A stretch of DNA of 63,186 nt, filler included, from Methanobacteriota archaeon (GCA_024860865.1; 10 parts of 10 records of this genome joined end to end with filler, not necessarily neighbours in it); one strand, 5' to 3'. Shown: positions 32,665-60,866, counted from the first letter of the whole stretch. The notes: generated from the letters alone by a model not told the origin. A program made the numbers and translations.

Positions 32665-32784
32665 TGCCTCGGACGGGATTTGAACCCGTGTTCTCGGCTC
32701 GATTGGCCACAGGTTTGGAGACCACCTGTTGAGGCCGAGATCCTTAACCGGGCTAGACTACCTTAGCCAGCTTACGCTTGAGGC
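32665..32784 (-). tRNA. tRNA-Glu(CUC) with introns at 5/6 (32763-32779) and 34/35 (32703-32730); duplicated acceptor strand at 32803-32809
   Basis: Spliced: GCCTCGGTAGTCTAGCCCGGTTAAGGATCTCGGCCTCTCGAGCCGAGAACACGGGTTCAAATCCCGTCCGAGGCA. Confidence 0.85.
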
Positions 32785-33612
32785 AGTATTTAACCTTCAA
32801 ATCCGAGGCATTTAATTTTTAAACCGCTCTAAATATTTGAGCTTTTCACCGAAAAATAGAAAAATGAAAATAGGAACAATAGCACTAGAGCTGATTTAAA
32901 TGTGTAAAACATGTGCAAAACATAACCCAAAGAAAAAGTCCAGAAAAAAATAAAGATTACACTCAGTTGATGCTAAGAGAGGATTATTAGATACAAAGTA
33001 CCTACAGCAAATTGTCTCTATCCCCAGCAGGGACCCATTTAGATTGAAACTAGCGTTTAAGGCTTAAATTGGATTAGAGGTTGAAAAGGGAAAAGGAAAT
33101 CTTGTTTATTTCATTCAGGCTTACTGGGTTTTCGCAAATTTGCTTATACAAAAGCTTGCAATATTAACTCCGAAGAACGCACTAGTAAGTGGATTTCAAA
33201 GTTACAAGAATTTGAGATCTGAGATCAACATTATGCAGTGTTTACTTTTCAATTTTTTTTGTTAAGTAAAACTTTTGGTTATTCCTCACTTGTTTTTTAA
33301 CTAGTCTTGCCCTCAGAAGATTTTTAATTAAAAACTTCTAATTTTATTTTTGAGGTATCTATTTTAAATAATTGCTATAGAGTTAAACTTGAAGGTCTTC
33401 TTTATTGAAGGAATATTAGGTTAGTTTAGAAGAATTAGCAAATTAATTATATTTAAAGCATAAAACTTTAATGTTACAATCTTAGTAAATTATTGCTGAT
33501 CGCTGTCAATACTTGTATATGGTAAAACCCAGAAAAATATATTAGGCCAATAAATTACTGGATGAATTTTGATATAACAGAGTAATTTAATACTATATTT
33601 TGAGGGGCAACT

Positions 33613-34158
33613 TTGAAAGAGATTCGATTTCATGGGCGCGGCGGGCAAGGAGTCGTAACCGCTGCTGAAATTCTAGCTGCTGCAGCTTTTAAAAATGGGA
33701 AGTATGCGCAAGCATTTCCTTATTTTGGACCGGAAAGGCGCGGAGCTCCAACAACTGCTTTTACAAGGATAGATGATAAGCCCATTCGCACCCGTTCTCA
33801 AGTTAAAAAACCAGACTATGTTGTTGTTCAAGATTCTTCTCTTTTTGATGTTGTAGATGTATTAGATGGTTTAAAAAACGATGGTTTAGTTTTAATCAAT
33901 AGTAATAAATCACCTAAAGATTTCAAAGTTAAAAATGCTAAAGTTTATGCTATTGATGCTACTTCACTTGCTGAAAAAATTTTACACGCTCCTTTTGTCA
34001 ATACAATAATACTTGGAGCTCTTGCTGCTGTAACAAATGAGGTAACTCTTGAATCAATTAAAGCCGCAGTAAAAGAAAGGCTCGCGGGCAAAGCTGTTGA
34101 AGGCAACATTAGAGCAGTAGAAGAAGCATATAAATTAATGAAGGGAAGCATTGAATAG
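33613..34158 (+). CDS. porG: pyruvate/ketoisovalerate ferredoxin oxidoreductase gamma subunit
   Basis: EIRFHGRGGQG, FGPERRGAP. Confidence 0.95.
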   Translation: MKEIRFHGRGGQGVVTAAEILAAAAFKNGKYAQAFPYFGPERRGAPTTAFTRIDDKPIRTRSQVKKPDYVVVQDSSLFDVVDVLDGLKNDGLVLINSNKSPKDFKVKNAKVYAIDATSLAEKILHAPFVNTIILGALAAVTNEVTLESIKAAVKERLAGKAVEGNIRAVEEAYKLMKGSIE

Positions 34159-34159
34159 C

Positions 34160-34426
34160 ATGCGCGAGTTAACAATAGGAGCCGTAATCAAAAAGCCAGG
34201 ATCTTCTCGCAGAAATAAAACAGGGACGTGGAGAAATCTAAAGCCAGTTATCGATATTGACAAATGTCTCCAATGTGATAACTGTCAACTTTTTTGTCCA
34301 GAAGGTATTATTAAGAAAGCAAAAAAGGGCATGGAAATCGATTATGATTACTGCAAGGGATGTGGAATCTGTGCAAATGAATGCCCAACCAGAGCAATCC
34401 AAATGGTTAAAGAGGGGATTGATTGA
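34160..34426 (+). CDS. porD: oxidoreductase delta subunit (2x4Fe-4S)
   Basis: KTGTWR, CLQCDNC..FCP, YCKGCGICANECP. Confidence 0.95.
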   Translation: MRELTIGAVIKKPGSSRRNKTGTWRNLKPVIDIDKCLQCDNCQLFCPEGIIKKAKKGMEIDYDYCKGCGICANECPTRAIQMVKEGID

Positions 34427-35595
34427 GCAAAAAAGTCGTAATTCATGGCTCACGGGCAGTAGCAGAAGCGGCAAAACTAGCTAAGGTAAATGTAATTTCC
34501 GCATACCCAATCACACCTCAAACTCACATAGTTGCAGATCTAGCTGAAATGATTGCAAACGGTGAGCTTAAGGCAGAATATATTCGAGCAGAATCAGAAC
34601 ACTCTGCAATCTCAGCTTGCATCGGAGCTTCAGCTGTTGGAGTTAGAACTTTTACTTCTACATCATCTCAAGGGATTGCACTCATGCATGAGGTTTTATT
34701 TATCGCTTCTGGGCTTAGACTTCCGATTGTAATGTCAGTTGCTAATCGTGCCATATCTGCCCCACTTAACATATGGTGTGATCACCAAGATTCTATTTCA
34801 CAACGCGATACTGGCTGGATTCAGTTATACATAGAGGATAACCAAGAAGCGCTTGATACAACTTTACAAGCTTTTAAAATTTCTGAAAATTCAGAAGTAT
34901 TGTTACCAACAATGGTCTGTATGGATGGATTTATTTTAACTCATACTGTTGAACCAGTTGAAATACCAGATCAATCGTTAGCAGACCAATTCTTGCCGAA
35001 GTATAAGGCGCAAATTTCCTTAGACCCAAAAATACCGAGCACATTTGGAGCATATGCTGATCCTGAGTGGTATATGGAATTTAGGTACATGCAGAATGAA
35101 GCAATGGAGCGAGCGAAAAAAGCAATCCTAGATGTGGACAATCAATTCAAAAAAATTTTCAATCGAAGTTATGGCGGATTAATTTCTGAATATAAGTGCA
35201 ATGACGCAGAGGTAATATTTATTGCAATGGGTTCTGTTGTAGGGACGATAAAAGAGGTCATCGATAGATTTAGGGCAAATGGTATTAAAGTCGGTGTTTT
35301 AAAAGTTAGATCATTTAGACCATTTCCAAAAGAAGAAATAAAAAAAGCCGTCTCAAATGCAAAGGTTTTGGCTGTTGTTGAGCGTTCTCTATCTATCGGT
35401 TCTGATAGCCCATTGTATGCGGAAGTTAAAAACACAGTTGGTCCTGAACTTAAAACAATCTGTTTTGTGGCTGGACTTGGTGGAAGAGATATCACTGAAT
35501 TAGATATTGAAGAAATAATTAAGAGAGCATATAATGCGATAAAAACTGGCAAAATTGAACGAGAAGTTGAATGGATTGGATTGAGGTTAAAGTAA
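34423..35595 (+). CDS. porA: oxidoreductase alpha subunit
   Basis: [23 protein letters not shown]. Confidence 0.95.
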
Positions 35596-37202
35596 TGAAG
35601 CTTGGTTTTGTAGGCACCGGTTGCCAAGTGCAAGGAATTAAAAAATTGCAAGCATGCTCTAAGATGATTGATTTGCTTTCAAGTCAATTTACTTGGCCAG
35701 AACAAATCAAATTTACCATTGGTTTATTCTGTTATGAAAATTTTCCATATGAATACTTAAAATCTTTTCTTGAAAAACGTGGAGTTAAATTGGAAGACAT
35801 AAATAAAATGTATATCAAAGGAAGACACTTCTGGGTTATCCTAAAAAGCGGAAAAACAATTCAGCTTTCCCTTGATGAGTTGAAATCGATTGCTCGCACT
35901 AGCTGTAAATTTTGCCCAGATTTTTCGGCTGAGTTAGCTGATATTTCAATTGGATCAATAGGTTCGCCCTCAGGTTGGTCAACTGTATTAATTCGAAATG
36001 AAGTTGGTGAAAAAATTTTTAATAAGGCTCTAGAGCTAGGCTATATTGAAGCAAACGAAATCACTGATCCAAAATCAAGGCTTAAAGTTGAAAGATTAGC
36101 ATTAAAAAAGAAAAAAGAAAGCATTTCTACAATTAATAAATTCAAGCCTGTATCTGCTAAAAAATTTGAATTACCTCCAAAGGAAAGCCCGTCTAATTTT
36201 GATAAATTAGTTAAATCAGTAGTGGACGCTGATTTATGCACGCTCTGTGGAACATGCATTTCGGCTTGCCCAGCTAATATCATTCGTATGGAAAATGAAA
36301 AATTGAAGTTAATTGGCGAATGCCAAGTTGGATGCAGTGCATGTTTTGTCTCTTGTCCAAGAACTGGGTTGCCGGATGAGCTAAAAATATCCGTTAAAGA
36401 ACCCTTAGGTAGATACATAAAATGTTACTCAGCTAGGGCTAAAGATGAAAAAATCTTGAAACGTAGCCAAGATGGTGGAGTTGCAACAGCAATTTTAGCT
36501 GCTGCACTTGATGCAGAGCTCATTGATGGTGCTGTAGTTAGTTCCACTGAAATAACTGAACCATGGAAACCCTTCCCAAAGATAGCAACTAATTTCGAGG
36601 AATTGTTAGCAGCTGCTGGTTCTCGTTATTCTTTTTCACCAAACGTCTCGTTAGTAAAAGAAGCGAAGCCAAAAATATTTGAAAAGGAGCTATTCGCCCC
36701 GGGACATAGAGCTTGCGCTGGATGTGGAGGAGTTCTCGCGATTCGACATGGATTAAAGGCACTTGGGAAAAATGTTATTGCAGTTAGTCCAACCGGCTGT
36801 ATGGAAGTGGTCTCAAGCCCATATCCTGAAACTGCTTGGGAAGTCCCATGGATTCACGTAGCTTTTGAAAATTCAGCTGCAGTTGCTTCTGGTATCGAAG
36901 CTGCTCTCAAAGTTTTAGGCAAAAAAGAAAATATAAATGTTGTATGTTTTTCTGGAGACGGTGGTACGGTCGATATAGGTTTTCAAGCTCTGTCTGGAGC
37001 TGCAGAGCGGGCTCACAATTTCATTTATGTCTGCTATGATAATGAAGCTTACATGAATACAGGCATTCAAAGAAGTGGAGCAACTCCATATGGGGCCAGA
37101 ACAACGACTTCTCCACCCGGTAAATTCAGCATTGGAAATGAAAGACCTAAAAAAGATATGGTAATGATCATGGCTGCGCATGAAGTGCCTTATGTAGCTA
37201 CA
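35595..37202 (+). CDS. fusion of circularly permuted FrhB/FdhB (F420-binding) module + ferredoxin + PorB-like beta subunit (truncated by contig end)
   Basis: Order: [51 protein letters not shown]; then [29 protein letters not shown]. Confidence 0.9.
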
Positions 37203-37302
37203 NNNNNNNNNNNNNNNNNNNNNNNNNNNNNNNNNNNNNNNNNNNNTTAATTAATTAANNNNNNNNNNNNNNNNNNNNNNNNNNNNNNNNNNNNNNNNNN
37301 NN

Positions 37303-37881
37303 AACCTAAAAGAACTGGAACTAAAAGGCTATATTGATGCCTACATCCCTGATGGTAAATATCAGGCAAATCAGCGCGGCAATCTAACCGATGAAGATTC
37401 TCCTTTTCATAAGAAGCACTTCATCTATAATCCAGAAAAAGACGTATACCTATGTCCTGATCAAAAAGAGCTTATCTTTAGATACAGAAAAACAGATGAT
37501 AGAAAAAGGCGTCTTTCTGTTTACAGCTACCGTGGCTGCCAATCCTGTAAGTACTTCGGCCAATGCACTAAAAGTCCTAACGGCAGAGAAATCAGGGTAT
37601 ATGATAATATAGGATACATCTATAAAATGCGTCAAAAACTAAGTACCGCTTACGGAAGACGAATCTACAATAAGCGTATGTGTATTATCGAACCTGTTTT
37701 TGGCAATATTAAGCACAACTTAAAATTTAGGGAATTCCTCCTGCGTGGCCTAAAGAAAGTCAAAGCTGAATTTATGCTCATTGCCATTGTCCATAACATT
37801 CAAAAAATAGCCAAGTTCTTAAGAAGACTTTTGTTTTTCAAGCTGCCCACGGTAGCATTGGTTCCTTTACCAGCAACATAA
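37303..37881 (+). mobile_element. C-terminal part of an IS1182-like DDE transposase
   Basis: Open from contig start; Y.CP...C..C...C; Y.KR...IEPVFGNIK...FR.F.LRG..KV. Confidence 0.85.
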
Positions 37882-38100
37882 ACGAGGCGGTTCAAGATTT
37901 ACGTGTAAGAAATAAGAAAACATAGAAAGAACAAAAGATTTAGGCATTATCTTAGCCCTAAAAACCATCTTGAAACCTAATTATCGGACAGCCACCTTGG
38001 GGCGCTTCCGTATCTCGCGTGCATCGTTCGGCTTTGCTGGGGCAAAGCCTCACTTGGCGTTCGCTTGGTCGCTCACTTCTTGCTAATGCAATGCGTGTGC

Positions 38101-38300
38101 GGCTCTGCTACGGCTGGCGGCTGACCGCACCCAGCCGCCAGCCGCTTGCGTCCAAAATCAATTTGTTAATAAGAACGGTTTGTCCGCTTTGCCGCTACAA
38201 CACTCTAAAAAATCTATGGTCGCGGCAATGCAGAGCCTATTGCGAACAATGCTTGAGAACAACCTGCTTGGGGCGGGCGTGGTGCGGGCACGCCCGCCCC
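38101..38300. repeat. two GC-rich perfect hairpins
   Basis: CGGCTGGCGGCTG/CAGCCGCCAGCCG (38111-38144) and GGGGCGGGCGTG/CACGCCCGCCCC (38270-38300). Confidence 0.8.
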
Positions 38301-38498
38301 CACGACTACCTTTACGTTTGGCAAATTTTTCCGCCACCAAAAATTTGCCATTTTACATATTTCAAGCACGAAAATTCTTAGAAGCTCGAGAGAAAGATTT
38401 TGGTTTATTTCTAATACATTTATTGTATAATATAACTAAAGAATAAGTGCTATTTGTGGCTGGTGTTATAATACCATATTGATAATTAAAGTCAAGAA

Positions 38499-38708
38499 AT
38501 GTTATCTGTTAATCTGAAAAAACTAAGGAAGCAAAGGAAAATTTCTCAAGATAAGCTTGCCAGACTAGCTGATCTTCCCTACAATACTCTAGTTAAGATC
38601 GAATCGGGGAAGTCAAATAACCCCACATTTGAGACACTATCAAAGCTAGCTGATGTTTTTAATATTTCCATTGATAAATTGACAGGGAGAGAAAGAAACA
38701 ATAAATAG
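38499..38708 (+). CDS. XRE-family HTH regulator
   Basis: LKKLR...SQDKLAR...KIESG...NPTFETL.KLA. Confidence 0.92.
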   Translation: MLSVNLKKLRKQRKISQDKLARLADLPYNTLVKIESGKSNNPTFETLSKLADVFNISIDKLTGRERNNK

Positions 38709-38760
38709 AAATGAAAAAGCAAGAAAAAACTAATAATAATTTACGACTAGATACAAAAAA

Positions 38761-39786
38761 ATGACAACTCTTGTAGCATTATCTACAAAAGATGCACTTG
38801 TGTTAGGTTGTGATAGTTTGGGCTCGAGAACTAGGAGAGTCATCGATCCCGGAGATTTAATTGATTTTTTTAATCTAGATGATAAAGAGTTTCCATTAAA
38901 ATTAGATAAGGATGGAAAACCTCTGTTGAAATCATTCAATGAAGTATACCTAAGGTCAGTTTCCACCCCCGTTGAGCATATGACGCACATGGCAAAGTTA
39001 TTTTTGTTAGAGCCATTAAAAATAGGTATCATGCTTACCGGGATTACTTCTATTGGCGAAAGGACAATAAAAAGCCTAGTTGAGGAATTTAAAACTAAGA
39101 AAATAAAATTGATAAAATCAAAAAGTTATACTGTAAAAGACATAGCCGAGAAAATACTGGAGCATATTTTACTATACTATGAGAAAGAATACCCCGATGA
39201 AAAGTCTAGGCCAGAATTGGAATTAATTCTTGGTGGCTATGGGAAAAAAGAAGTTTTACCTGAGATTTATAGAATCAAGCTTCCAGTCAAAAATATAGAA
39301 CTACAATTAGGAAGTCAGGGAGAGAGCCGTTTCGGTATAGTTTTTGGTGGTCAAATGAAGGAAATACAACGTATCGTGTTCGGTACTGACTATGGCAATA
39401 CACTAGAACTACGAAAAAGACATATTGAGTTATTAAAAAAATATAGAGAAAAAATAATGGAACTCCTGAAAAGTAACAGCATTACTTTTCAGATCCCTGA
39501 GTTTTCGAAAGACGAACTGTCAGAGTTGGATATTTTTACGAAAGATTGGAAATTGGAAGGATTCGAAGCTAACTGGGGAGATTTCTCTGAACAAAATGCT
39601 ATCGAATGTGTTGACTTCTTTGTTAATATCATGATAAAATCTCAACAATTTGGCGGTGGTATGCCTACAGTTGGCGGAGAGGTACATATCGCTCTCATAA
39701 CCAAAGATAAAGCTAGATTTGTTTCAAAAGAAGAATATTACCACTCTGGTCATTTTACGCCTAAGCATATACAAGAAGCCGTATAA
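38761..39786 (+). CDS. hypothetical protein with Ntn-hydrolase/proteasome-beta-like features
   Basis: M-T-T-L-V-A...LVLGCDS N-terminus, LILGGY, C-terminal TVGGEVHIA.I. Confidence 0.6.
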   Translation: MTTLVALSTKDALVLGCDSLGSRTRRVIDPGDLIDFFNLDDKEFPLKLDKDGKPLLKSFNEVYLRSVSTPVEHMTHMAKLFLLEPLKIGIMLTGITSIGERTIKSLVEEFKTKKIKLIKSKSYTVKDIAEKILEHILLYYEKEYPDEKSRPELELILGGYGKKEVLPEIYRIKLPVKNIELQLGSQGESRFGIVFGGQMKEIQRIVFGTDYGNTLELRKRHIELLKKYREKIMELLKSNSITFQIPEFSKDELSELDIFTKDWKLEGFEANWGDFSEQNAIECVDFFVNIMIKSQQFGGGMPTVGGEVHIALITKDKARFVSKEEYYHSGHFTPKHIQEAV

Positions 39787-39821
39787 TTAAATAAAAATTA
39801 TTTTTAATAAAGGAGTTAACA

Positions 39822-40151
39822 ATGATAGGTCCTATTAGTTTTACCGACGCGGATATTGATAAATCAGTTAAAGATAAAGATATCGGAGCGTATATTCTTT
39901 CGAAAGGTAATAACGTAGCCAATTATGTTGGGCGTTCAGACTCAAGTCTTAAGCAACGCTTAAAGCAACATTTGCAGAATGGAATTTATACACAGTTTTG
40001 GTTTGAGACTGTTACTTCTGCGTTGGATGCTTATTATTTGGAGTGTCAATGGTATCACAAATATAGCCCAAAAGATAATGAAAACCATCCTGCAATTCCT
40101 CCTGGATCTGCTTGGAAATGTCCTGTTGCCGGCTGTCCTTATTCAACATAG
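39822..40151 (+). CDS. small GIY-YIG-like nuclease
   Basis: GAYIL...YVGRS...L.QRL.QH...LE; C-terminal H/C cluster. Confidence 0.7.
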   Translation: MIGPISFTDADIDKSVKDKDIGAYILSKGNNVANYVGRSDSSLKQRLKQHLQNGIYTQFWFETVTSALDAYYLECQWYHKYSPKDNENHPAIPPGSAWKCPVAGCPYST

Positions 40152-40186
40152 ATTAGTACATATGGGATAAAAAAAAGGAGCAAATT

Positions 40187-40349
40187 ATGTCAGAAGATAA
40201 ATTACAGACTCATAGAAGTGCAGAGAAAATAGGCAAAGAAAGTAGACAAAGATTTCATGATTGGTTGAATTCTAATTGTCTTAAAGCTGTGTCGCATGAA
40301 GAGGCAAGAAAAATAACTGGGAAGATTAAAAAAGATATTGGCAAAATTG
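40187..40349 (+). CDS. hypothetical protein, truncated by contig end
   Basis: AGGAG RBS, open to the gap. Confidence 0.5.
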
Positions 40350-40497
40350 NNNNNNNNNNNNNNNNNNNNNNNNNNNNNNNNNNNNNNNNNNNNTTAATTA
40401 ATTAANNNNNNNNNNNNNNNNNNNNNNNNNNNNNNNNNNNNNNNNNNNNAAAAGCGAGTCACTCAATTATAATAGCTAAAACATACTAAGGCCCCTA

Positions 40498-40932
40498 GTG
40501 ACCTCCTCCCAACGCTAAAAGCATTGGGCATCCACCACTTCAAGGACTCGCTCCGTCACCGGAGGCGCAGGTCCGCTCTTGCTTACGGATGCTTTCGAGG
40601 TCGCTGCCTTTACTCGGCTATCAACTGCCCTCTTTTCTCCACAGGAGCCCAAAGGGCTAAAGCCTTACCCTGCCCTAACTCGCTTTGCACTTTCACTGCG
40701 GGAGGAGCGGCAGCTTAGGGGCTGGGTCACAAATGACTTGTAGGCTCAAGTCCAGCCCTGCCTTGCAGCATATAGCCGCAGGCCTGGCGGCAAAGCGCAA
40801 AGAAAATTAAGACTTAAAAATATTAAAATTTTTGAAATTTATTTAGATTCGAACAAAAAACAAGTGGAGAGAGGTGACCGAAAGTATCGCAATTCATCTC
40901 TCAGCTAAGCAAAGAGTATTCTTGCAAAATTA
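40498..40932 (-). mobile_element. ORF-less IS200/IS605-derived element, complete copy 2
   Basis: Right end GGATGCCCAATGCTTTTAGCGTTGGGAGGAGGTCAC; left-end hairpin GCAATTCATCTCTCAGCTAAGCAAAGAGTATTCTTGC; near-identical to 54693-55031. Confidence 0.82.
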
Positions 40933-50261: not shown

Positions 50262-50264
50262 GAA

Positions 50265-51595: not shown

Positions 51596-51703
51596 TCTCC
51601 AAAAAATAAAATCACAACTATACTACAGTAAACAACTTACTCATAAAAGTTTCTGCCAGAAAAAAATTTTGCAAAGAAAAAAAATTTAATTCAATTTTAT
51701 AAT

Positions 51704-53014
51704 TTATCTTTTCTCAAAATTTCCAGACGATAAAATTTTAAGCGCGGGTGGGCGATTGATTATATTCCCGGTTTTCACACCAACTAAGAAGCTAATGCCT
51801 TTCTCATTTGCTAAATCAATTAATCGTTGCGTAACAACACCATCAAACACTACTGCATAAATTTTGTTCGTTGATTCTTGCAACGTTTTTGTTAAATCAC
51901 GCACTATAACTTCGCCCATTAAGTTTAAATCACTATCGAGCAAATGTGCTTTTAAACTTCCTGTTAGAGATTCTAATATATTCAACAGCCTCTCAGATTT
52001 TTCATCCAATTTTTCTTCTTGCTCAAATCTTGGCGGTGCTCGCTCAAAATATTCTCTTCGCTCAAAATATTCTCTTCGCCGTGGTATGTGGGGCCTTCTT
52101 TTGAATTCTGCCCTCTCTGGTTCGATATGCTCAAGAGATAACATTGGTGTTGCCTGTTCGGCTGGAATTTTATTCCTCAATGCTTTTATTATTTCTTTAT
52201 AAGTTAATTCTTCGACTTCTTTGCCCTCTGGAGCGCGAGCCACGTAATCAACTTCTGCAACTTGCAACAATTCCTTTAGTATAAGTTCCCCGCCTCTATC
52301 TCCGTCAACAAAAGCAGTAACTGTTTTTTCTTTACTAATGTCGATAATAGTTTGTGGGATGTTTGTTCCTTCAACAGCTATTGCATTTTTAATGCCGTGC
52401 TTTAATAGAATTAGCACATCAGCTCGTCCCTCAACAACGATTATAGCATCCGATTCCCCAACTGCAGGTCCTGCTGGTAACCTTTCAGAACCGTAGTCAA
52501 TGATTTCGCTAGTTCTAATTGACTGCTTAACTTCTTCTGTAATTTCCTGACTTTCTGGAGTAATTTCTTCAAAAAGAGTTGTTAAAATCTCTCTTGCACG
52601 GTCAATTACCATTCTTCGCTTAGCTGCTCTAACATCCTCAATTTTTAAAACAGATATCTCTGCTTTACACGGACCAACTTTATCGATTGATTCAAGCGCA
52701 GCAGCCAAAACAGCAGTTTCAACCTTGTCTAAGCTAGAAGGTATTATTATTGACCCGTGAGTTTTGCCGCCTGTAGAGCGTATCTCAACTTCGATTCTTC
52801 CTATGCGACCTGTCTTTTGTAACTCACGTAAGTCTAAATCCTCACCCAATAAACCCTCTGTTTGTCCAAAAATAGCCCCGACAACGTCGGGCTTTTCAAC
52901 AATGCCATCAGCATCAATTTCAGCATGTGTAACATATTTTGTAGTAGTAACCTCACCTTTTTCCACGTAAATACCCTCCAATTGTAAACTACCTTGTTCC
53001 AAATTCTCAACCAA
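51704..53014 (-). CDS. dnaG: archaeal DnaG (primase-like, exosome-associated)
   Basis: DVVGAIFGQTEG, VVEGRADV, DGDRGG. Confidence 0.95.
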   Translation of the reverse strand: MVENLEQGSLQLEGIYVEKGEVTTTKYVTHAEIDADGIVEKPDVVGAIFGQTEGLLGEDLDLRELQKTGRIGRIEVEIRSTGGKTHGSIIIPSSLDKVETAVLAAALESIDKVGPCKAEISVLKIEDVRAAKRRMVIDRAREILTTLFEEITPESQEITEEVKQSIRTSEIIDYGSERLPAGPAVGESDAIIVVEGRADVLILLKHGIKNAIAVEGTNIPQTIIDISKEKTVTAFVDGDRGGELILKELLQVAEVDYVARAPEGKEVEELTYKEIIKALRNKIPAEQATPMLSLEHIEPERAEFKRRPHIPRRREYFERREYFERAPPRFEQEEKLDEKSERLLNILESLTGSLKAHLLDSDLNLMGEVIVRDLTKTLQESTNKIYAVVFDGVVTQRLIDLANEKGISFLVGVKTGNIINRPPALKILSSGNFEKR

Positions 53015-53076
53015 TTTTCCAAAAAGAAATTAGAATAAATGGTCATAATTTTTCATTTGGTTTTATATTACATCAT

Positions 53077-53517
53077 CTATAATAAATTATCATAGAAAGA
53101 CAAGCTTAATTTTTTAGTCTTGGCCTGTTTTAGGACATTTTCGAAGTGAACTGCTAAGCTTTCAACATCTTTCAATCCTTTTTTAACTAATTTTTTGAAA
53201 TTTTTTCTAAGTTCTAAATTTGGAGCCACACCTTCTCCTTGAAGGCAAGCGGCCAATTTTTTAGCCGTCTTTTCACCTCTTTTGTCAAAATCGGTCAAAA
53301 TAACCGCTTTAGAAGCTTTTTCTGAGATTTTTTCAGCAAGTGAAAGTAATGATTTGCCTTGAGCTATGGTAATGAATTTTCCGCGTATGCCGAGCTTTTT
53401 TAAAGCACTAACATCACGCCTACCTTCAACAATAATGGGAATTTCATCACTTGACAGTGTTTGAAGCCTCTTTAACAAGGAAAAGAGCTCCTCAATCTGG
53501 GCTTCAGTGTATTTCAA
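53077..53517 (-). CDS. small toprim-domain protein (UPF0292-like)
   Basis: IIVEGRRD, ILTDFDKRG. Confidence 0.9.
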   Translation of the reverse strand: MKYTEAQIEELFSLLKRLQTLSSDEIPIIVEGRRDVSALKKLGIRGKFITIAQGKSLLSLAEKISEKASKAVILTDFDKRGEKTAKKLAACLQGEGVAPNLELRKNFKKLVKKGLKDVESLAVHFENVLKQAKTKKLSLSFYDNLL

Positions 53518-53531
53518 TTAAAATCACCAAA

Positions 53532-53810
53532 TATGGGGCCTGCCTATGCCCTACTGATAACCCTTAGCTATCAGCGGTAGAATTCTTCAATTCCTCCTGC
53601 CAAGTAACCCTCCAGTAGGATAATAGCAGGTCCCGCTCTTGCTAGTGTGCTAGGTCGGGGTTGTCCTTTAATCATTGTTAGGCGTCACGCCAAGTTCATA
53701 AAGGGACCCTAGAAACTTCGGCCTAAATACCCAGCAAGAGGCTCAAATGTTGCCGCAAAGCTTGCTTAAGCGCTCATAAAATCCCGCTTATCCTCGATCC
53801 TGCGGCTTAT
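53532..53810 (-). ncRNA. H/ACA-type guide RNA hairpin (53748-53806) followed by two further long hairpins
   Basis: GCCGCAGG/CTTTGCGGC stem, pocket ATCGAGG/GCAAG, TAAGCG/CGCTTA stem with GA..ATGA K-loop, ACA 15 nt from the pocket; BRE/TATA-like sequence upstream. Confidence 0.7.
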
Positions 53811-54002
53811 GATTTCATTGCATTTATAATATTGTACTGGTTTTTTTAAGAACTTTGCGTTCTAAGCGGAATACTCCTTTTTAAGGTTCTATGTCAATTT
53901 TTCTATCAGATTTAAAAAAGTTTATCAGATTTAAGAGAAAAGCCTTTTTGATTAAAACTTAAATTCAAAATTGGAAAGTGTGTTTTAGTCCTCAGGAGAC
54001 AT

Positions 54003-54203
54003 CTAACGTTTCATCTCTAGATGAATCAACATCAGATTCCGGTTCAGCTTTAGCAAATAATTACTCATCACATCTATCCCGGCTATAAGAAACCTAAAGT
54101 ATGTATCGACAAACGCTCTATTCATATCCACAAATGGGGCAAATGGAAGTAACTTCACATTCTCCTCTGATTGTTGTTTTGTTTTTCTTATTTTAGTTTT
54201 CAC
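54003..54203 (-). CDS. hypothetical protein
   Basis: 66-aa ORF with GTGGTGA RBS-like sequence. Confidence 0.35.
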   Translation of the reverse strand: MKTKIRKTKQQSEENVKLLPFAPFVDMNRAFVDTYFRFLIAGIDVMSNYLLKLNRNLMLIHLEMKR

Positions 54204-54692
54204 TTTTTGTCACCACTCATAGAGCATTTTTAAAAAATATTAAAAGATAACCCAAAGAATCATACAAAAATTACAATTTTGGTAAGAATTTTTTTCAACC
54301 TTATTCAATCCAATTTTAATGATATTTAAGAAAAAAGCCTTTTTGGATTTGATTTCACCATAAATCAGTAGACCATAAGAGCAGTTGTACCTTTTGGAAA
54401 TCCCATTTTTAAGAAAATAACGATGAACCATATCCTGATTATCCATGAGAATAATTCCGCTAATAGAATTAATTACAAGTTGATTCCCTTGGATTTTTAG
54501 GGTATTCACGATGAAATTTAAGCTCGACGAGGTAATGAGAGACAGATCGAGGAACACAGATTTCATAAAAAGAGCATTGCCAAGATTATCTCTTGGGTTA
54601 ATGAGTCAGAAAAGATATTTCCCAGTTATGTTCTTGATGGAAGCAACAACCTATGAGTATGGTTTTGATGTTTCATCAATTTTTTATAATAA

Positions 54693-55031
54693 AATTTCGC
54701 GAGAATACCATTTGTTTTAACTGATGGATGAATCGCTAATACTTCCGGTGACCTCCCCCTCCACTTGTTCCTTGTTCAAATCCAAATTAATTTCAAAAAT
54801 TTTTAATATTTTTAAGTTCTTAATTTCCTTGCGCTTTGCCACCAGGCCTGTGGCTATATGCTACAAGGCAGGGCTGGACTTGAGTTTACGAGTCATTTGT
54901 GACCCAGCCCAAAAGCTGCCGCTCCTCCCGCAGTGAAAGTGCAAAGCGAGTTAGGGCAGGGTAAGGCTTTAGCCCTTTGGGCTCCTGTGGAGAAAAGAGG
55001 GCAGTTGATAGCCGAGTAAAGGCAGCGACCT
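54693..55031 (+). mobile_element. ORF-less IS200/IS605-derived element, copy 3 (cut by gap)
   Basis: Near-identical to the reverse complement of about 40590-40932. Confidence 0.82.
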
Positions 55032-55198
55032 NNNNNNNNNNNNNNNNNNNNNNNNNNNNNNNNNNNNNNNNNNNNTTAATTAATTAANNNNNNNNNNNNN
55101 NNNNNNNNNNNNNNNNNNNNNNNNNNNNNNNATTATACCTCAGAAACCTGTTTAAGCGGTGAAAAGCCAGCAGAAACCTGCATTTATATCAAATCCCT

Positions 55199-55825
55199 TT
55201 ATGACCTCGGCTTGTACATTCTTAGTTTCGGCCTAATCAAAAACCTCTCTTTTTTATTAACATCCCTTACCTTTCCCGCATTTTCCAATCCAAATGCCTT
55301 AGCCATCATTCCCAGTTCTTGATAACTGATTACCTTACCTTTAAGATCTTTCACTAAAGCCTTGAAAGCTTCCTCTTCTCTTTCTTCTAAGTAGAGTATA
55401 CTTCTTCTTTTTATCCTAGTTATCTTGACTGGAAAATACTTTTTTAGCATAGTTTTCGTGTATCGAGAAACAGTTTTCATGCTATAGCCCTTTTCCATGA
55501 GATCCTGGATTATTTTTAAACTTCTTCCCCTTATCCCCTTGTTGCCTTGACCTACAGTTATATCTCTTGTCCAGTTTAAGATAGTAGAATAGCAAATGCC
55601 AATATCTTCAGCCACTGATATCTTTGATCCTTCCTTGCTAACCCTTTCTCTAACTTCTTGTTTTATCTCTTGAGAATAGCTTTTTCTTCTTTTAATATCG
55701 CCAGTCCAAGTGAGGATTGTTCCGTAAGGTACATCCATATCTTGAGAAACTGACAATTTGCTCTCTCTGTTGATTATTCTTTCTCTTACTTCTTTCTTAA
55801 TCATCTCTGGATACTTTCTTGGCAT
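55199..55825 (-). CDS. protein with two tandem HTH repeats
   Basis: Repeats Y..EIK.EVRER......K.SV..D....Y.TIL.WT.DI. Confidence 0.65.
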   Translation of the reverse strand: MPRKYPEMIKKEVRERIINRESKLSVSQDMDVPYGTILTWTGDIKRRKSYSQEIKQEVRERVSKEGSKISVAEDIGICYSTILNWTRDITVGQGNKGIRGRSLKIIQDLMEKGYSMKTVSRYTKTMLKKYFPVKITRIKRRSILYLEEREEEAFKALVKDLKGKVISYQELGMMAKAFGLENAGKVRDVNKKERFLIRPKLRMYKPRS

Positions 55826-55989
55826 TATCTACAATCTTGTAAAGCATGATAAAGGTAGTTTCTTTCATTGGTAGAATGAACTCTAGTAAAAGTTAGATAT
55901 TGAACAATTAAAAATCAGAAAAATGGACTTTCAGAGCCTATACTCAAAGAATTTGTCTTTCATTGGTAGATTTTTACTTTGCGATCTAC

Positions 55990-56262
55990 TGATCTAAAGA
56001 TGATTTTGATGAAGAGCTCTCTAAAATTAGAATTAAAATAAAACAATTATCTTTAGATTTAGCAGATAAAATCACAAAAAATGCAATAAAGTACCGAAGC
56101 CATTATCCATTTATTCATCATGCCAGAGATTATGTCATTGGAACTACTGCTCAAGATGAAGAAGCAATATTGATTACCTATAATGTCAATCACTTTAATT
56201 GGCTAAAAGATGAAGGTATTGAAGTAATGACTCCAGAACAATTTGCTTCCATAACTGTGTAA
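55990..56262 (+). pseudogene. PIN-domain remnant
   Basis: ARDYVIGTTA....AILITYNVNHF...VMTPEQF with no intact 5' end. Confidence 0.55.
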
Positions 56263-56264
56263 GA

Positions 56265-56518
56265 TAATTTCACGAGAATATCATTTGTTTTTAGCTGATG
56301 GATGGATATTACTTCCGGTGACTTTTCTCCACTTCTTTGTTCGAATTCAAATGCCTTCAAAAATTTTTAATATTGTCAAGCTCTTAATCTTCCTTGCGCT
56401 TTGCCACTAGGCCTGTGGCTATACGCTAGCAGGGCTGGACTTGAGCCCATAGGTCACTTGGGACCCGGCCACTAAGCTGCCGCTGTGATGCCATTGGCTT
56501 TAACTGCAGGTAGTTCAC
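56265..56518 (+). mobile_element. ORF-less IS200/IS605-derived element, short copy 4
   Basis: Same left end, promoter and CCTTGCGCTTTGCCAC..GGCCTGTGGCTA start; ends GATGCCATTGGCTTTAACTGCAGGTAGTTCAC. Confidence 0.78.
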
Positions 56519-56611
56519 TCTTCAATTGATTTGATATTAGAGCCAAATAAAAAGAATTTAATCTTTAACTTTTTATATGGAATTGGCGAAGAGAGAGTGA
56601 GGAAAGCAATT

Positions 56612-57178
56612 TTGAAAATTATTGCAATCGCAGGAATGTGCGGCTCTGGTAAAGATATTACGATTGAAAAATTTGTTAGCAGTTCAAAAATTCCAGTAGT
56701 AAATATGGGCGATATAGTGAGAAGAGAAGCTGAGATGATAGGATTAGCTCCAAATACGGAGACTTTAGGAAAAATTGCCACTGAGCTAAGAGAAGATGAA
56801 GGCCCCAGTATAATTGCTGAGCGATGCATTCCAATAGTTAGAGAATTCATGGAACAAAATCCAAAGGCAATAATTATCCTAGGGTTGCGAAGCTTAGCTG
56901 AAGTTGAGACATTTAAAAGAGCTTTTGGCGAAAATTTTAGTTTAATTGCAGTTCACGCTTCACCAAGAGTTCGATTTGAAAGATTAAAGAAAAGAGGGCG
57001 TTCTGATGACCCAACAGAATGGAAGAAATTTGAAGAGCGCGATATCCGAGAGCTAAAATTTGGATTAGGAGAAGTTATTGCGTTAGCTGATTATGTAATT
57101 GTAAATGAAGGCGCACTTATTGAGGCTCAAAAACAAGCCGAAGAAATTCTTAATAGGATTGTTGCTGATAATATATGA
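56612..57178 (+). CDS. UPF0200-type P-loop nucleotide kinase
   Basis: IAGMCGSGK, MGD.VR, RGRSDD, RD.REL.FG. Confidence 0.88.
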   Translation: MKIIAIAGMCGSGKDITIEKFVSSSKIPVVNMGDIVRREAEMIGLAPNTETLGKIATELREDEGPSIIAERCIPIVREFMEQNPKAIIILGLRSLAEVETFKRAFGENFSLIAVHASPRVRFERLKKRGRSDDPTEWKKFEERDIRELKFGLGEVIALADYVIVNEGALIEAQKQAEEILNRIVADNI

Positions 57179-57609
57179 TTATCCACAAAGTTCGAGCTGA
57201 AACAATTATCTGTCCAACTGAAGATGAAAAAAAAGTCAGAGCTGCGCTGGAGAACATAATCGTTTTAAAGCAATTTGCTGAGGAGGAACAAGAGCTAGGA
57301 AAGTTACTCTTTGTAGAAACAACGGAGGGAAAAATTATTTTGAGTAAGCTTCACAAATTAATGCGCACGCAGAGGATTCTTGATACAGCTAGAGAATTTA
57401 TGAAAAAGTATCAATTGAGCAATGAAATCACTCTTAAACTAAATAAGCAAGCAGCTTTAATGGGAGTTGTTAGTTTTACTGAAGGAGAAACCTCCCTTGG
57501 GCCTATTGTTATAAAAATTACTACTAGCAAACCAGAACAAGTAATTGATTGGCTAGCCCCGAAAACTAAAGATGGAAAACCATTGTATGAAATTGAACTT
57601 GAGGGTTAA
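57175..57609 (+). CDS. UPF0201 RNA-binding protein
   Basis: PTED..KV..AL.N, QRILDTAR, LNKQAA, IDWLAP.T. Confidence 0.88.
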   Translation: MIIHKVRAETIICPTEDEKKVRAALENIIVLKQFAEEEQELGKLLFVETTEGKIILSKLHKLMRTQRILDTAREFMKKYQLSNEITLKLNKQAALMGVVSFTEGETSLGPIVIKITTSKPEQVIDWLAPKTKDGKPLYEIELEG

Positions 57610-57611
57610 CC

Positions 57612-58412
57612 TTGAAAATTGGTATGTCAACTCTTGCATTGATTCTTGACCCTATAGAGAAGGCACTTAAAAAAATTGAAGCAATGAAATTCGATTGTTG
57701 GGAAATAATTGCTGAAGGTCCGCATCGATTAACAACTCATAATCTAAAAGAGTTAAAAAAAATCAAAGAACTTAATTCGATTGAACTTACGATTCATGCG
57801 CCATATTCAGATCTCAATTTAGCTAGTTTAAATCCAGAAATCTTGGCTGAAACAATTAAACAAACAAAAGAAAGCATAACTGCCGCTCATAAATTGGGCG
57901 CTAAAATAGTTACGCTTCATCCAGGCCGCTTGTCACCTTACGGAATGTTTATCCCTAAGCAAGCATGGAAAACGAATCTTGAATCAATTGCCATATGTGC
58001 CGATTTTGCAAAAGATCTTGATATTATAATCGCTATTGAAAATATGCCGAAATTTTTTGGGGTATTTGGGCAGACTCCAGAGGAACTTTTAGAGATGATT
58101 GATAATATTAATTCTAAAAATTTGCAACTAACTTTTGATGTTGGTCATGCGTATATTGTGAACCCAGCAGTCATGGAGTTTATTGAAAAAATAAAGGACT
58201 TTATAGCAAGTATACATCTTCACAATAACGATGGCGCTCAAGATTTGCATTTTTCACTTAAAAAAGGTATAATTAGCTATAAGGAAATCCTTCAGAAGTT
58301 TCATGAAATAAACTACAATGGTTTATTGATAATTGAAACTCGCTCGTTAGATGATGCTATAGAGAGCAAAGCTTTTCTTGAAGCTTTTAGTAAGAATTAT
58401 TTTTCTAGTTAG
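57612..58412 (+). CDS. sugar-phosphate isomerase/epimerase (AP-endonuclease-2 TIM barrel)
   Basis: HAPY.DLN, HPG, IENM, FDVGH, HLHNNDG..D.H. Confidence 0.88.
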   Translation: MKIGMSTLALILDPIEKALKKIEAMKFDCWEIIAEGPHRLTTHNLKELKKIKELNSIELTIHAPYSDLNLASLNPEILAETIKQTKESITAAHKLGAKIVTLHPGRLSPYGMFIPKQAWKTNLESIAICADFAKDLDIIIAIENMPKFFGVFGQTPEELLEMIDNINSKNLQLTFDVGHAYIVNPAVMEFIEKIKDFIASIHLHNNDGAQDLHFSLKKGIISYKEILQKFHEINYNGLLIIETRSLDDAIESKAFLEAFSKNYFSS

Positions 58413-58443
58413 CTGTTTTCTTAAAACTTAAAATTGAGTTAGT

Positions 58444-58653
58444 TTACATCGGTGCGGCTAACTTAACATCTTCGGCTACAATGGTTTTCCTTCCACTACT
58501 TTTTGCAATAGCAGCCGCTTTTTCTGCAATTTTTTTGGAGAGTTCTTCCATTAATGCAGCCATTTCTCTGGCAGCTTTAGGACTTACTCTTTCAGCGTAT
58601 AAATGGAGAATTCTCGCAAAGGGAGCAGTAGCCAATTCTTTCTTGGGACCCAT
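58444..58653 (-). CDS. archaeal histone (divergent)
   Basis: ELA.APFARI...AERVS..A...GRKTI.AEDV.LA. Confidence 0.88.
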   Translation of the reverse strand: MGPKKELATAPFARILHLYAERVSPKAAREMAALMEELSKKIAEKAAAIAKSSGRKTIVAEDVKLAAPM

Positions 58654-58829
58654 GCCTTTCACCTCTAACTAAAAATTGAGAGCTTCCTGCTTTTTTTGTT
58701 TTTTATTTTAATTTGGGATAGTTTAGAAANNNNNNNNNNNNNNNNNNNNNNNNNNNNNNNNNNNNNNNNNNNNTTAATTAATTAANNNNNNNNNNNNNNN
58801 NNNNNNNNNNNNNNNNNNNNNNNNNNNNN

Positions 58830-59261
58830 AAGGATGTCTGCATTCAGAATAACTACAGGGCATTTGATTTCAAGACAATAGATGAGCGTGCTTACACCCT
58901 TGAAAGAGAGCCCATCTTTCTGATCAATAAAAAAGATAGATATGGTTCAATACAAATCGGTGATGTCAGGACAGCAACAGTAGAAAAAACGATAGTTGAC
59001 ATGATATTTTTAGTCACCAGAAAAAATTATCCGCTTTCTGGCAGGGAAATAGGGAGGACAATTTACAACATCCTCGAAACAAAGTCCTTGAACATCGGCT
59101 TGATGATACGCTATGCAACAAGAAGAAACATGAGCGCAGAAGTCACAAGAATACTCGCAAAGCTATACCAGAGATACCCTCACCTAAAGGTTTTGGAAAG
59201 ATTTGCAGCCAGAGAAAAAAGCATAGAAAAAGTTGTAAACGAAATCACAGGAGAATACTGA
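58830..59261 (+). CDS. type IV TA antitoxin (AbiEi-like), 5' cut by gap
   Basis: Open from contig start; ATVEKTIVD motif; coupled to the downstream toxin. Confidence 0.65.
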   Translation, partial: KDVCIQNNYRAFDFKTIDERAYTLEREPIFLINKKDRYGSIQIGDVRTATVEKTIVDMIFLVTRKNYPLSGREIGRTIYNILETKSLNIGLMIRYATRRNMSAEVTRILAKLYQRYPHLKVLERFAAREKSIEKVVNEITGEY

Positions 59262-60415
59262 TGGCTACGCTGTTTGGAGAACATGAATCAAAATTGTTGG
59301 GTAATAAAAAGTCCTTCGAAAGAAGGAATGTCGAAAAATTCAGAAGAAAGTATCGAGATGTGCAACTGATAGAGAAAGCCATTTATGTATTAGAATACTT
59401 GTCACAGTTGCGAAGTGTTGGCTTAAATCCATTGTTTAGAGGCGGTTCTGCCACACAGTTTATGCTTCCCACTCCCATAAGAAGGCTCAGCATCGATCTT
59501 GATATAGCAACAAGCCAACCAGAGAAGTTGCTAGAATGCATGAAGTCGATTAATCTAAAATTTGATAAAAAGTTTTTTGATTTTACTAAAGACAGAAGGC
59601 CTGGACTGCATTACAGGATAACAACCCCAACATATTACACCCCTGGGTTTTCTGGATTCTTTTTGTTGGATGTGTTTGAAAAAGAACCGAAATATAAAAC
59701 ACGGATGATGAAACTAAAAACAGAGTACTATGAATCCAACGCAAGAGCAAAAATACCCACAGTAAATTCAATGCTAGGAGATAAGCTATCCACACTTGGT
59801 CTTAGAACAATTGGTCTTCATAAAAACAGGCCGTCAATGGAACAAAGCAAGCAACTTTACGACATAATTCAGCTGTTAGACCATGCAACTGATTTTAGAG
59901 ACATATATGATGCATATTCTAATTGCTTCAAGATTCAAGTGGGTTTCCGAGGATTAAAAATCTGTCTAGATGACGCTCTAGATGACTTGGCATATACGTT
60001 AAAATTATTTGTAATAAGCCAACCAACTGGAGCTCTTCCAGCTAAAATGAGGGATGACGCTGCGTACATAAGAGATGGTATAAGAAAAGTTGAGAGTCAT
60101 CTGAGAAGGGATATAAGGTTTACATATCTCTCAGCGCGGGTTGGTGCTGCAAAAACACTGTTTGCATCTAGGGTTCTAAAGTTAGTAAATGAGAGAAAAC
60201 TTACGAGCAAAGAAGCAACTCAGATATTAAGACTTCTAAAAGATATAAGCGGAAAAGTTGCTGATAAAGATTTTATTGAAAAAATCATACCAAAAGTGAG
60301 ACAAAAGGAAAAAGCGATTAATCCAAATGAACTGAGAGGAAATGCTCCGCTAGCGCTCATATACATATACGGCTACTGGTACCCCTTTGAGCTGGTTGAC
60401 GAAGTAAGAACATGA
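59261..60415 (+). CDS. AbiEii-like nucleotidyltransferase toxin
   Basis: FRGGSA...RRLSIDLD, GDKLST, KQLYDI. Confidence 0.85.
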   Translation: MATLFGEHESKLLGNKKSFERRNVEKFRRKYRDVQLIEKAIYVLEYLSQLRSVGLNPLFRGGSATQFMLPTPIRRLSIDLDIATSQPEKLLECMKSINLKFDKKFFDFTKDRRPGLHYRITTPTYYTPGFSGFFLLDVFEKEPKYKTRMMKLKTEYYESNARAKIPTVNSMLGDKLSTLGLRTIGLHKNRPSMEQSKQLYDIIQLLDHATDFRDIYDAYSNCFKIQVGFRGLKICLDDALDDLAYTLKLFVISQPTGALPAKMRDDAAYIRDGIRKVESHLRRDIRFTYLSARVGAAKTLFASRVLKLVNERKLTSKEATQILRLLKDISGKVADKDFIEKIIPKVRQKEKAINPNELRGNAPLALIYIYGYWYPFELVDEVRT

Positions 60416-60700
60416 ACACCAATCCTTCTTCTACGTTATCCACGTCCTACCCTTTATAATATATTGAGCAAAAAAAGCACTCGTGCTATAATCAATAGGT
60501 ATTTGGGAAAGTGGGGTATTCACACCCAATTAGGCCCACTATTTTGAATATTCGACCCAATGTTCTAAAAAACTGAATGTTTTAGCGTAAATTCATTGAT
60601 TCTATCGCAACCTACAAGAACTTTTAAAAATAATAATGAGATAAATTATTATAGGAAACTGGTCTTTCATACTTTAGCGGGGTTAATCGGGCTCCACCTT

Positions 60701-60866
60701 AGCGGGGACCGCAGCATTTGCGGCCGCAATAGGGTAGCCAGGAAATCCCGTCGGACGTATGCTAAATATAGCATATGGGCAAAGCTCATAAGGTCGTCCT
60801 AGACCAATGAGGTCAAGGATTTCCTAAGAGACCCGAAGATCGGAAGTTCAAATCTTCCCCCCGCTA
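60701..60866 (+). tRNA. initiator tRNA-Met(CAU) with introns at 7/8 (60708-60729), 30/31 (60755-60783) and 37/38 (60791-60830); duplicated acceptor strand at 60676-60682
   Basis: Spliced: AGCGGGGTAGGGTAGCCAGGAAATCCCGTCGGGCTCATAACCCGAAGATCGGAAGTTCAAATCTTCCCCCCGCTA; A1-U72 and three G-C anticodon pairs. Confidence 0.88.

Follow-up and report, generated by a model that had tools for sequence, protein, structure and literature searches.

The stretch of archaeal DNA considered here, referred to below as the window, comprises 63,186 bases in ten short contigs with N spacers between them, and its sequence gives the host archaeon a G+C content of about 37%. Five tRNA genes are found in it, for lysine, arginine, serine, glutamate and the initiator methionine (iMet), and it is the last two that concern us here. 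In both of them an intron engages the 5' strand of the acceptor stem, and in both this strand is present a second time, in the leader, 25 nucleotides (nt) upstream of the true nt 1. These duplicate strands had been claimed in a preliminary description of this DNA, and both reading and a script found them at its coordinates. The two genes lie on different contigs, as it had also said, and the Lys, Arg and Ser genes each have a single copy of their acceptor strand.

The iMet gene is on the plus strand and consists of four exons and three introns (Table 1); the joined product has 75-76 nt. On this strand of the window AGCGGGG occurs at two sites only, 60676 and 60701, and the repeat actually extends over 12 nt, AC[T/C]TTAGCGGGG, with 11/12 positions identical between the copies. 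For the bulge-helix-bulge (BHB) motif recognized by the splicing endonuclease we used the definition of Marck and Grosjean (2003), as quoted in the accessible passages of preprint 10.64898/2026.10.13.758758, in which the four exon bases that stop 2 nt short of the 5' cut pair with the four intron bases that stop 2 nt short of the 3' cut. At the downstream copy the 7/8 intron then has a central helix GCGG:CCGC that is paired at 4/4 positions, bulges GG^A and AA^T, and an inner helix CCGC:GCGG. The outer helix is formed by ACCTTA (leader bases 60696-60700 plus A60701) with TAGGGT of exon 2; this pairing and its counterpart TAC:GTA in the Glu gene are both present as first described. The upstream copy is also able to pair with the CCGC of the intron, but without an inner helix.

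The Glu gene, on the minus strand, consists of three exons and two introns, and its joined product of 75 nt has the anticodon CTC. GCCTCGG is found at one site only on this strand of the window (32809-32803), the second copy being interrupted by the 5/6 intron. The central helix of this intron, UGCC:GGCU, has three pairs plus a U-U mismatch and thus represents the relaxed form of the motif; its inner helix is AGC-GTAA-GCT (AGC:GCT closed by a GTAA loop) and its outer helix is TAC:GTA. The gene corresponds to an Rfam tRNA match at 32665-32767 (37.6 bits). With introns allowed, ARAGORN calls it Val(CAC), with a start inside intron 1; we rejected this call and assign the anticodon CUC, because only the 34/35 splice yields a paired central helix (Table 1).

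The window introns thus show the 4 bp central helix, the two 3 nt bulges and the flanking helices of the motif, and their predicted removal leaves a canonical tRNA. As far as the sequence tells, the downstream copy is the strand that lies within the BHB motif, in iMet and Glu alike. Predicted cutting and joining at this copy therefore leaves a 25 nt leader that starts with copy 1. In both genes the upstream copy is fully complementary to the 3' acceptor strand. Each gene has all its exons in order 3' of a single TATA-like box, over 191 nt in iMet and 145 nt in Glu, unlike a split or permuted gene. The two boxes, which the preliminary description had placed upstream of the first copy, were seen by reading, and a second AT-rich stretch lies directly 5' of the Glu copy 1; the boxes are suggestive only, because the flanks are AT-rich and other boxes are possible.

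The iMet spacer holds a further repeat. Its bases 60687-60694, TCGGGCTC, duplicate the anticodon stem's 5' strand together with the start of the loop, a segment that is itself split by intron 2, and in the predicted iMet fold they pair with the 3' strand of the anticodon stem. An 8-mer match to the spliced tRNA is equalled in 590/100000 shuffles of the spacer, and this is one case only. A second surrogate of this kind in the Glu spacer was considered and rejected, the 6-mer that this spacer shares with the tRNA being without significance (7542/100000 shuffles).

Table 1. Features of the window tRNA genes (window positions) and of the copy-bearing tRNA genes of genome G273
Feature	Position	Strand	Remarks
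TATA-like box TTATTATA	60646-60653	+	centre about 26 nt 5' of iMet copy 1; by reading
iMet copy 1, AGCGGGG	60676-60682	+	leader copy of 5' acceptor strand; proposed partner 60859-60865
iMet spacer, 18 nt	60683-60700	+	
iMet exon 1, nt 1-7	60701-60707	+	copy placed in BHB
iMet intron 1, 22 nt, 7/8	60708-60729	+	full BHB, both flanking helices
iMet exon 2, begins TAGGGTAGCC	60730-60754	+	
iMet intron 2	60755-60783	+	in 5' strand of anticodon stem, about 30/31; central helix 3/4 pairs by hand
iMet exon 3, GCTCATAA	60784-60791	+	anticodon CAT
iMet intron 3, 40 nt	60792-60831	+	directly 3' of anticodon loop
iMet exon 4	60832-60866	+	3' acceptor strand CCCCGCT 60859-60865; discriminator A 60866
TATA-like box AAATATTT	32838-32831	-	centre about 26 nt 5' of Glu copy 1; by reading
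Glu copy 1, GCCTCGG	32803-32809	-	complete 7 nt 5' acceptor strand in leader
Glu spacer, 18 nt	32785-32802	-	TAC:GTA (exon 2); GGTTA:TAGCC (D region) in fold
Glu exon 1, GCCTC, nt 1-5	32780-32784	-	
Glu intron 1, 17 nt, 5/6	32763-32779	-	relaxed BHB; GG TAGTC comes next
Glu exon 2	32731-32762	-	
Glu intron 2, 28 nt, 34/35	32703-32730	-	central helix GGCC:GGCC
Glu exon 3	32665-32702	-	3' acceptor strand CCGAGGC 32666-32672; discriminator A 32665
tRNA-Lys(UUU)	3974-4331	+	single intron of about 280 nt, canonical position
tRNA-Arg(CCG)	14552-14641		
tRNA-Ser	32455-32569	-	
G273 tRNA-Glu with copy			intron 10/11
G273 tRNA-Gln, two genes with copy			intron 10/11 in each
G273 class II tRNA with copy			intron 8/9
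G273 class II tRNA with copy			intron 3/4; helix uses nt 1 only, with three leader bases
G273 iMet with copy			intron 4/5

The same arrangement recurs in other archaeal genes. When metagenome sequence was scanned for the iMet acceptor strand with 12-42 nt between it and exon 2, 86 stretches were obtained, among which are 24 distinct genuine iMet genes. In 17 metagenome iMet genes with a 4/5 intron, a full copy and a 7-10 nt spacer precede AGCG^intron^GGG, and the central helix is paired 4/4 at the split copy; these 17 were left out of the tally below because they had been found through the copy. Four metagenome genes are of the window type, with a 7/8 intron ending in ..CCGCAA or ..CCGAA[AT], and all have an upstream copy, at offsets of 10 nt (L083/L111), 11 nt (L154), 10 and 20 nt (L108, which has three tandem 10 nt units containing AGCGGGG) and 15 nt (L135). 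The AT-rich iMet genes L098, L119, L132 and L144 have no copy; their intron was placed by hand at 9/10 (GGGG:CCUU/CCCU/CCUC), and nt 1-3 together with leader bases form pairs with the D arm.

We then have an unbiased search, with a pattern anchored on the split exon only, of 401 genomes of the class containing a Bathyarchaeota record (hereafter the Bathyarchaeota class). It gave 30 iMet loci, 16 split at 4/5 and 14 uninterrupted. All 16 split genes have [A/G/T]GCGGGG 14-20 nt before the true nt 1, and GCGGGG is absent from the 146 nt upstream of the uninterrupted ones (0/14). Two genomes sampled from this class, G273 and G326, were examined through partial Rfam tRNA matches, the whole G273 scaffold being scanned. 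G273 has six genes with a copy (Table 1), and in each of them the central helix of the intron uses bases of the 5' acceptor strand. In G326, L200 and L203 have the copy, and L201 (8/9) and L202 (tRNA-Asp, 4/5) do not. The Asgard genome G434 contains an L135-type iMet gene with its copy; the iMet pattern matched 1/201 genomes in the sample of that phylum. Finally, the 17 tRNAs of G003 (Thermofilaceae) include neither an acceptor-engaging intron nor a nearby copy.

Among the genes that were not ascertained via the copy, 29/35 tRNAs with an acceptor-engaging intron have a copy 10-25 nt upstream (two from the window; L083/L111, L154, L108 and L135; the 16 iMet genes of the Bathyarchaeota class; five further G273 genes; L200 and L203). 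Of the controls with an uninterrupted 5' part, 0/74 have one within 45 nt (three from the window, the 14 Bathyarchaeota-class iMet genes, 26 from G273, two from G326, 12 from G434 and 17 from G003). The offset of 25 nt, which the preliminary description had emphasized, is real in both window genes and is not a rule, since offsets elsewhere are 10-22 nt.

Some loci encountered in this survey are recorded here in their own right. L202 (G326:C10:20600-21200), a tRNA-Asp gene without a leader copy, has BHB introns in both acceptor strands as placed by hand, one at 4/5 (GCGC:GCGU) and one within the 3' strand (CCA^..^GGGC, CGCC:GGCG). Two metagenome contigs, L109 and L161, encode an iMet with the acceptor AGCGGCG:CGCCGCT and no acceptor intron; here AGCGGGG lies in the leader 7 nt upstream and CCCCGCT in the trailer after ACCTT, which resembles a 'ghost' outer acceptor pair enclosing an intact tRNA. 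The leader of L308 (G003:C6:39320-39840), an uninterrupted tRNA, begins with GGGTCCG 22 nt past a TATA-like box; this 7-mer, 56 nt upstream, could pair with the 3' acceptor strand, yet it complements GGACCC within the same 56 nt leader hairpin. In G273, T arms at 21826 (+), 726220 (-) and 911123 (-) belong to tRNA 3' halves with CCA for which no matching 5' strand is present within 450 nt upstream, and the half at 911123 resembles the 3' half of a nearby tRNA-Gln; the three may be split tRNA genes or pseudogenes.

The copies follow their own tRNA. In ten tabulated genes, representing seven acceptor sequences, 69/70 positions of the copies form pairs with the 3' strand of the same gene, compared with a mean of 4.36/7 pairs when copies are combined with foreign 3' strands. 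Three of the four differences between copy and true strand in these genes keep the pairing. Among the substitutions, G for A opposite U72 and U for C opposite G68 (Glu of G273) are compatible with pairing, and the terminal pair is broken by one T at position 1 and by G7 to A in L200. In the 16 iMet genes of the unbiased search, positions 2-7 of the copy are invariant in 16/16 while flanks, spacers and introns have diverged, and position 1 is A in six, G in nine and T in one. Homology with the mature tRNA ends at nt 6-7 in the ten tabulated genes (one shares nt 8), with introns at 3/4, 4/5, 5/6, 7/8, 8/9, 9/10 and 10/11. Judged from these alignments, the limit of the copy is a helix boundary and not the one expected of a recombination scar. 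An extension of the L200 copy into the D arm was also tried as a scar from a spliced copy and rejected, being explained by a CTAG palindrome that the outer helix needs.

Folding of transcripts that start at the copy places it on the 3' acceptor strand beside the T arm in both window genes. The predicted probability of this pairing is 0.98 for iMet and 0.999 for Glu, and 0.97-0.999 across all transcripts tested. When the BHB core is forced in 7/8 genes, the cost is 1.9 to 6.1 kcal/mol higher with the copy blocked (four rows, three distinct genes); central-helix probability and forcing cost are informative for 7/8 introns only.

Taking these observations together, we propose, with a probability of roughly 60%, that the upstream copy is a selected leader element, a surrogate or decoy for the 5' acceptor strand that would hold the 3' strand until splicing. 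A surrogate strand had been suggested at the outset from the window alone, and this suggestion is supported in part, as comparison now adds to its complementarity the link to introns that engage the 5' strand, the covariation, the BHB motif at the downstream copy and the outer helix supplied by the leader. Transcription would start at the copy or within a few bases of it, to judge from the TATA spacing. At the split iMet loci of the Bathyarchaeota class a TTTAAG-type box, identified by reading, ends 22-25 nt 5' of the copy, which makes copy position 1 the likely initiating purine. In the precursor, as the sequences show, the BHB motif engages the true bases of the 5' acceptor strand, which pair with the intron, and the last leader bases pair with exon 2. 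The copy would meanwhile pair with the otherwise partnerless 3' acceptor strand beside the T arm, and because of this pairing, as we propose, an acceptor/T-arm helix is kept in the precursor and the 3' strand is kept out of the BHB motif. The splicing endonuclease would then cut at the downstream copy and the exons would be ligated. Lastly, the true 5' strand would displace the copy, and RNase P would remove the 10-25 nt leader with the copy in it.

This last step is the weakest of the scheme, and RNase P removal of the leader is plausible. An RNase P RNA is present in G326 (157.6 bits) and Rpp29 in both G273 and G326; no RNase P RNA was found in the G273 scaffold, which has 101 gaps, and an Rfam search found none in the 63 kb of the window. 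Removal of the iMet leader at nt 1 by the endonuclease was tried as another route and rejected, as inspection by hand gave the required helix no partner 3' of the 3' strand.

Several points weigh against a surrogate strand. We infer, first of all, both the transcript start and the pairing of the copy in vivo. Second, a copy is lacking in six of the 35 genes with an acceptor-engaging intron (L098, L119, L132, L144, L201 and L202), so that the copy is not obligatory; the expectation that every tRNA with an acceptor-stem intron should carry the duplicate holds for 29 genes and fails for these six. The counts also overstate the number of independent events, because many of the positives are related and the 16 iMet genes represent about seven spacer/intron types. 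Two G273 tRNAs were left out of the count, the one at 1100877 because it gave no clear reading and the one at 111386 because its upstream sequence is masked. Third, the median benefit of the copy in the 4/5 genes is -0.1 kcal/mol (range -2.1 to +3.0, 17 genes). The idea that the copy frees the exon for the BHB motif therefore has energetic support in the 7/8 genes only and is not general as a 'relief of competition'; provision of a partner for the orphan 3' strand fits better. Fourth, after in silico splicing the two-dimensional (2D) model still pairs the 3' strand with the copy in preference to the true acceptor stem (P = 0.965 for iMet and 0.999 for Glu), which suggests that release of the copy needs a factor outside the 2D model or that the scheme is incomplete. 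Tertiary contacts, which the 2D model ignores, would be the obvious candidate for takeover by the true strand. Finally, a related strain does not help to judge constraint. Among the DNA contigs compared (X1-X4), X2 differs from window 32300-33100 by 15 substitutions and five indels, with a single change inside the Glu gene (32727 A to G, which keeps a pair in intron 2) and none between 32728 and 32963; its leader is unchanged and therefore uninformative.

The copy might instead be a functionless scar of intron gain, left by integration and loss of a mobile element with a tRNA segment in it, by gene conversion from an allele that had the intron or by local tandem duplication. In Caldiarchaeum tRNA-Thr, according to the accessible passages of PMC3293823, a 5' tRNA fragment does form an upstream direct repeat of a tRNA that gained its intron via an integrating element, so that there too a duplicate of the 5' end lies upstream of the intron-bearing copy of the same tRNA. 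That fragment, however, lies at a distance of 1.8 kb or of over 500 kb, and a recombinase gene separates it from the tRNA (PMC3293823), whereas here the distance is 10-25 nt and no element intervenes, and the copy is limited to the seven helix-forming bases (six in L200), with changes that are mostly pairing-compatible. The tandem units of L108 and the 5 nt upstream extension of the window iMet repeat do resemble recent local duplication, six intron genes cope without a copy, and a simple energy model gives little benefit for 4/5 introns. On the other hand, a scar would be expected to stop where the crossover took place or the intron lies, and the copies end at the helix boundary for introns from 3/4 to 10/11; a scar also sits poorly with the invariance of positions 2-7 between diverged flanks. 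The repeats do not resemble attachment sites either, their end being independent of the intron site and the spacers merely 3-15 nt long outside the window and 18 nt within it, without remnant of an element. The window open reading frames (ORFs) scanned beside the Glu and iMet genes (KaiC-like, 30850-32298; AbiEii-like, 59261-60415; Nnr-like, 61459-62961) include no integrase-like domain. Duplication possibly accounts for the origin of the copy but not for its maintenance, and we consider a functionless scar unlikely.

Just as unlikely, in our view, is that the copy pairs with the 3' strand for some other purpose, such as protection of the 3' end and its encoded CCA against exonucleases, a delay of RNase P cleavage or aminoacylation until splicing is complete, or presentation of an acceptor/T-arm minihelix to a processing or modification enzyme. 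Such a role shares with the surrogate-strand proposal the evidence from pairing, covariation and association, which does not separate the two. It fits the absence of an energy effect on the BHB motif in the 4/5 genes, where the interrupted true strand hardly competes, and CCA is encoded after the discriminator in most Bathyarchaeota-class genes examined. By itself it leaves unexplained why the copy is restricted to introns that engage the 5' strand; yet all such introns orphan the 3' strand.

In the alternative raised by the preliminary description, copy 1 is the real 5' exon of a nested intron. A second endonuclease reaction, coming after the first splicing or using a relaxed motif, would then remove the spacer and the second copy, and the first transcribed base would be the mature 5' end, with no RNase P step. 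The window iMet gene invites this idea: between its copies lies an in-register BHB motif at 4/5 (UUAG:UUAG, 4/4, flanking helices of 3 and 4 pairs), and its copy 1 pairs with the same intron CCGC. Moreover, the TATA spacing places copy 1 at the start expected of a leaderless tRNA, and the 2D model leaves it on the 3' strand after splicing. However, the nested motif is structurally possible in only 1/27 cases; there is none in the window Glu gene, the 16 Bathyarchaeota-class iMet genes, four G273 genes or five copy/exon pairs of the four metagenome 7/8 genes. Even in the window iMet gene it needs at least 6 transcribed bases 5' of copy 1, and therefore conflicts with a start at copy 1. A1 is the rule for archaeal initiator tRNAs, and the nested route would yield G1 or U1 in 10/16 of the Bathyarchaeota-class genes. 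In the 17 metagenome 4/5 genes, copy 1 as the exon gives only 1-2/4 central pairs. Copy 1 is thus very improbable as the real exon. That the window repeats are chance matches, which only their shortness (7 nt) favours, is effectively refuted, as each 7-mer has p = 1.3e-5 per position at window composition and P = 5.3e-4 per gene for at least one chance start within 40 nt upstream, two genes in one window have the repeat, and 27 more genes show the arrangement, with a copy that in each case fits the acceptor of its own tRNA.

Full-text literature searches, with subscription papers and supplements outside their scope, found no description of an upstream acceptor-strand copy. The accessible passages of PMC4090602, PMC4033280, PMC3218864, PMC3293823 and the 2026 Asgard intron preprint (10.64898/2026.10.13.758758), which places acceptor-stem cases in a supplementary note, do not mention one. 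The arrangement, a leader-assisted form of BHB splicing, thus appears to be undescribed. It has the same motif parts as the archaeal multi-intron tRNAs with noncanonical BHB introns (PMC4090602, PMC4033280, passages seen), the window genes being multi-intron as well, and as in these the predicted removal of the introns gives a normal tRNA; a second complete acceptor strand in the leader is absent from those accounts, as far as the passages go. The window leaders differ in having two roles, as their 3' end contributes to the outer helix and their 5' end duplicates the acceptor strand. Split tRNA genes, in Nanoarchaeum equitans and others, likewise build the endonuclease substrate with flanking transcript that is discarded (passages of PMC4090602, PMC4033280 and PMC3218864). 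The window arrangement, in contrast, is wholly in cis on one transcript, and its extra element is identical to an exon strand and has the mature 3' acceptor strand as its partner rather than a partner leader.

The promoters of the leaderless tRNA genes of N. equitans are said to keep a constant distance to the mature 5' end. This archaeon has no RNase P, and its tRNA transcription is leaderless (PMC3491384). As in N. equitans, the transcript here seemingly begins at the strand that forms an acceptor-type helix. There this strand is the mature 5' end, whereas here it would be a copy that needs removal, with a TATA-like box about 26 nt before copy 1 and not at this distance from the true nt 1; and the relatives G326 and G273, unlike N. 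equitans, have RNase P components.

As for the remainder of the window, its RpoB is unsplit, and the closest RpoB among the matches listed (Hydrothermarchaeota, Hadarchaeota and Asgard records) has 65% identity. In the ORF for RNA polymerase A' (7869-12077, plus strand, 1402 amino acids) an intein splicing domain separates Rpb1 domain 2 from domain 3. tRNA-Lys(UUU) lies directly 5' of the RNA polymerase operon, and a tRNA is found at the equivalent place in several relatives. A groundwater metagenome is among the DNA runs that contain window sequence, and no run listed is recorded as RNA. Where the last contig ends, beside the Nnr-like gene, there is an Rfam match to the group II intron catalytic domain (63034-63088, minus strand), whose 41.7 bits barely exceed the gathering score of 40. 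A weak Rfam match to the H/ACA-type HgcG RNA lies at 53529-53857 (minus strand, 25.4 bits compared with a gathering score of 77, E = 0.004).

The arrangement also bears on annotation. A gene with two candidate 5' ends may lead automatic tRNA finders to choose the wrong one or to miss the gene. With default settings ARAGORN reports one tRNA in the window and misses both the Glu and the iMet genes, and at the gathering score of Rfam the Glu gene is the only tRNA found. At a lowered threshold ARAGORN calls the iMet gene tRNA-Leu, with a start 1 nt before copy 1; this candidate was rejected by a BHB check by hand.

Introns in the acceptor stem pose a folding problem, as the splicing motif and the acceptor stem compete for the same bases. 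If the surrogate-strand proposal is correct, a conserved spare strand carried by the leader would be how the cell solves this problem, and archaeal tRNA leaders would hold structural information instead of being disposable sequence. Tentatively, and at something short of even odds, we extend it to a widespread and hitherto unrecognized class of cis-acting archaeal pre-tRNA elements, in which a leader mimic of the 5' acceptor strand would serve as an intramolecular chaperone. Such a mimic would occupy the 3' acceptor strand from the first transcribed base, would let introns colonize, and be spliced from, the acceptor/D junction, and would set the order of processing that the scheme predicts, with splicing followed by strand exchange and then by 5' trimming by RNase P. 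In the window iMet gene the leader may imitate the split 5' side of the anticodon stem as well and thus be a condensed stand-in for the whole 5' half. The copy pattern is found in the Bathyarchaeota class, in an Asgard genome and in the lineage of the window, and is therefore either old or easily re-invented. In either case, it would offer a handle on why introns persist at certain tRNA positions only.

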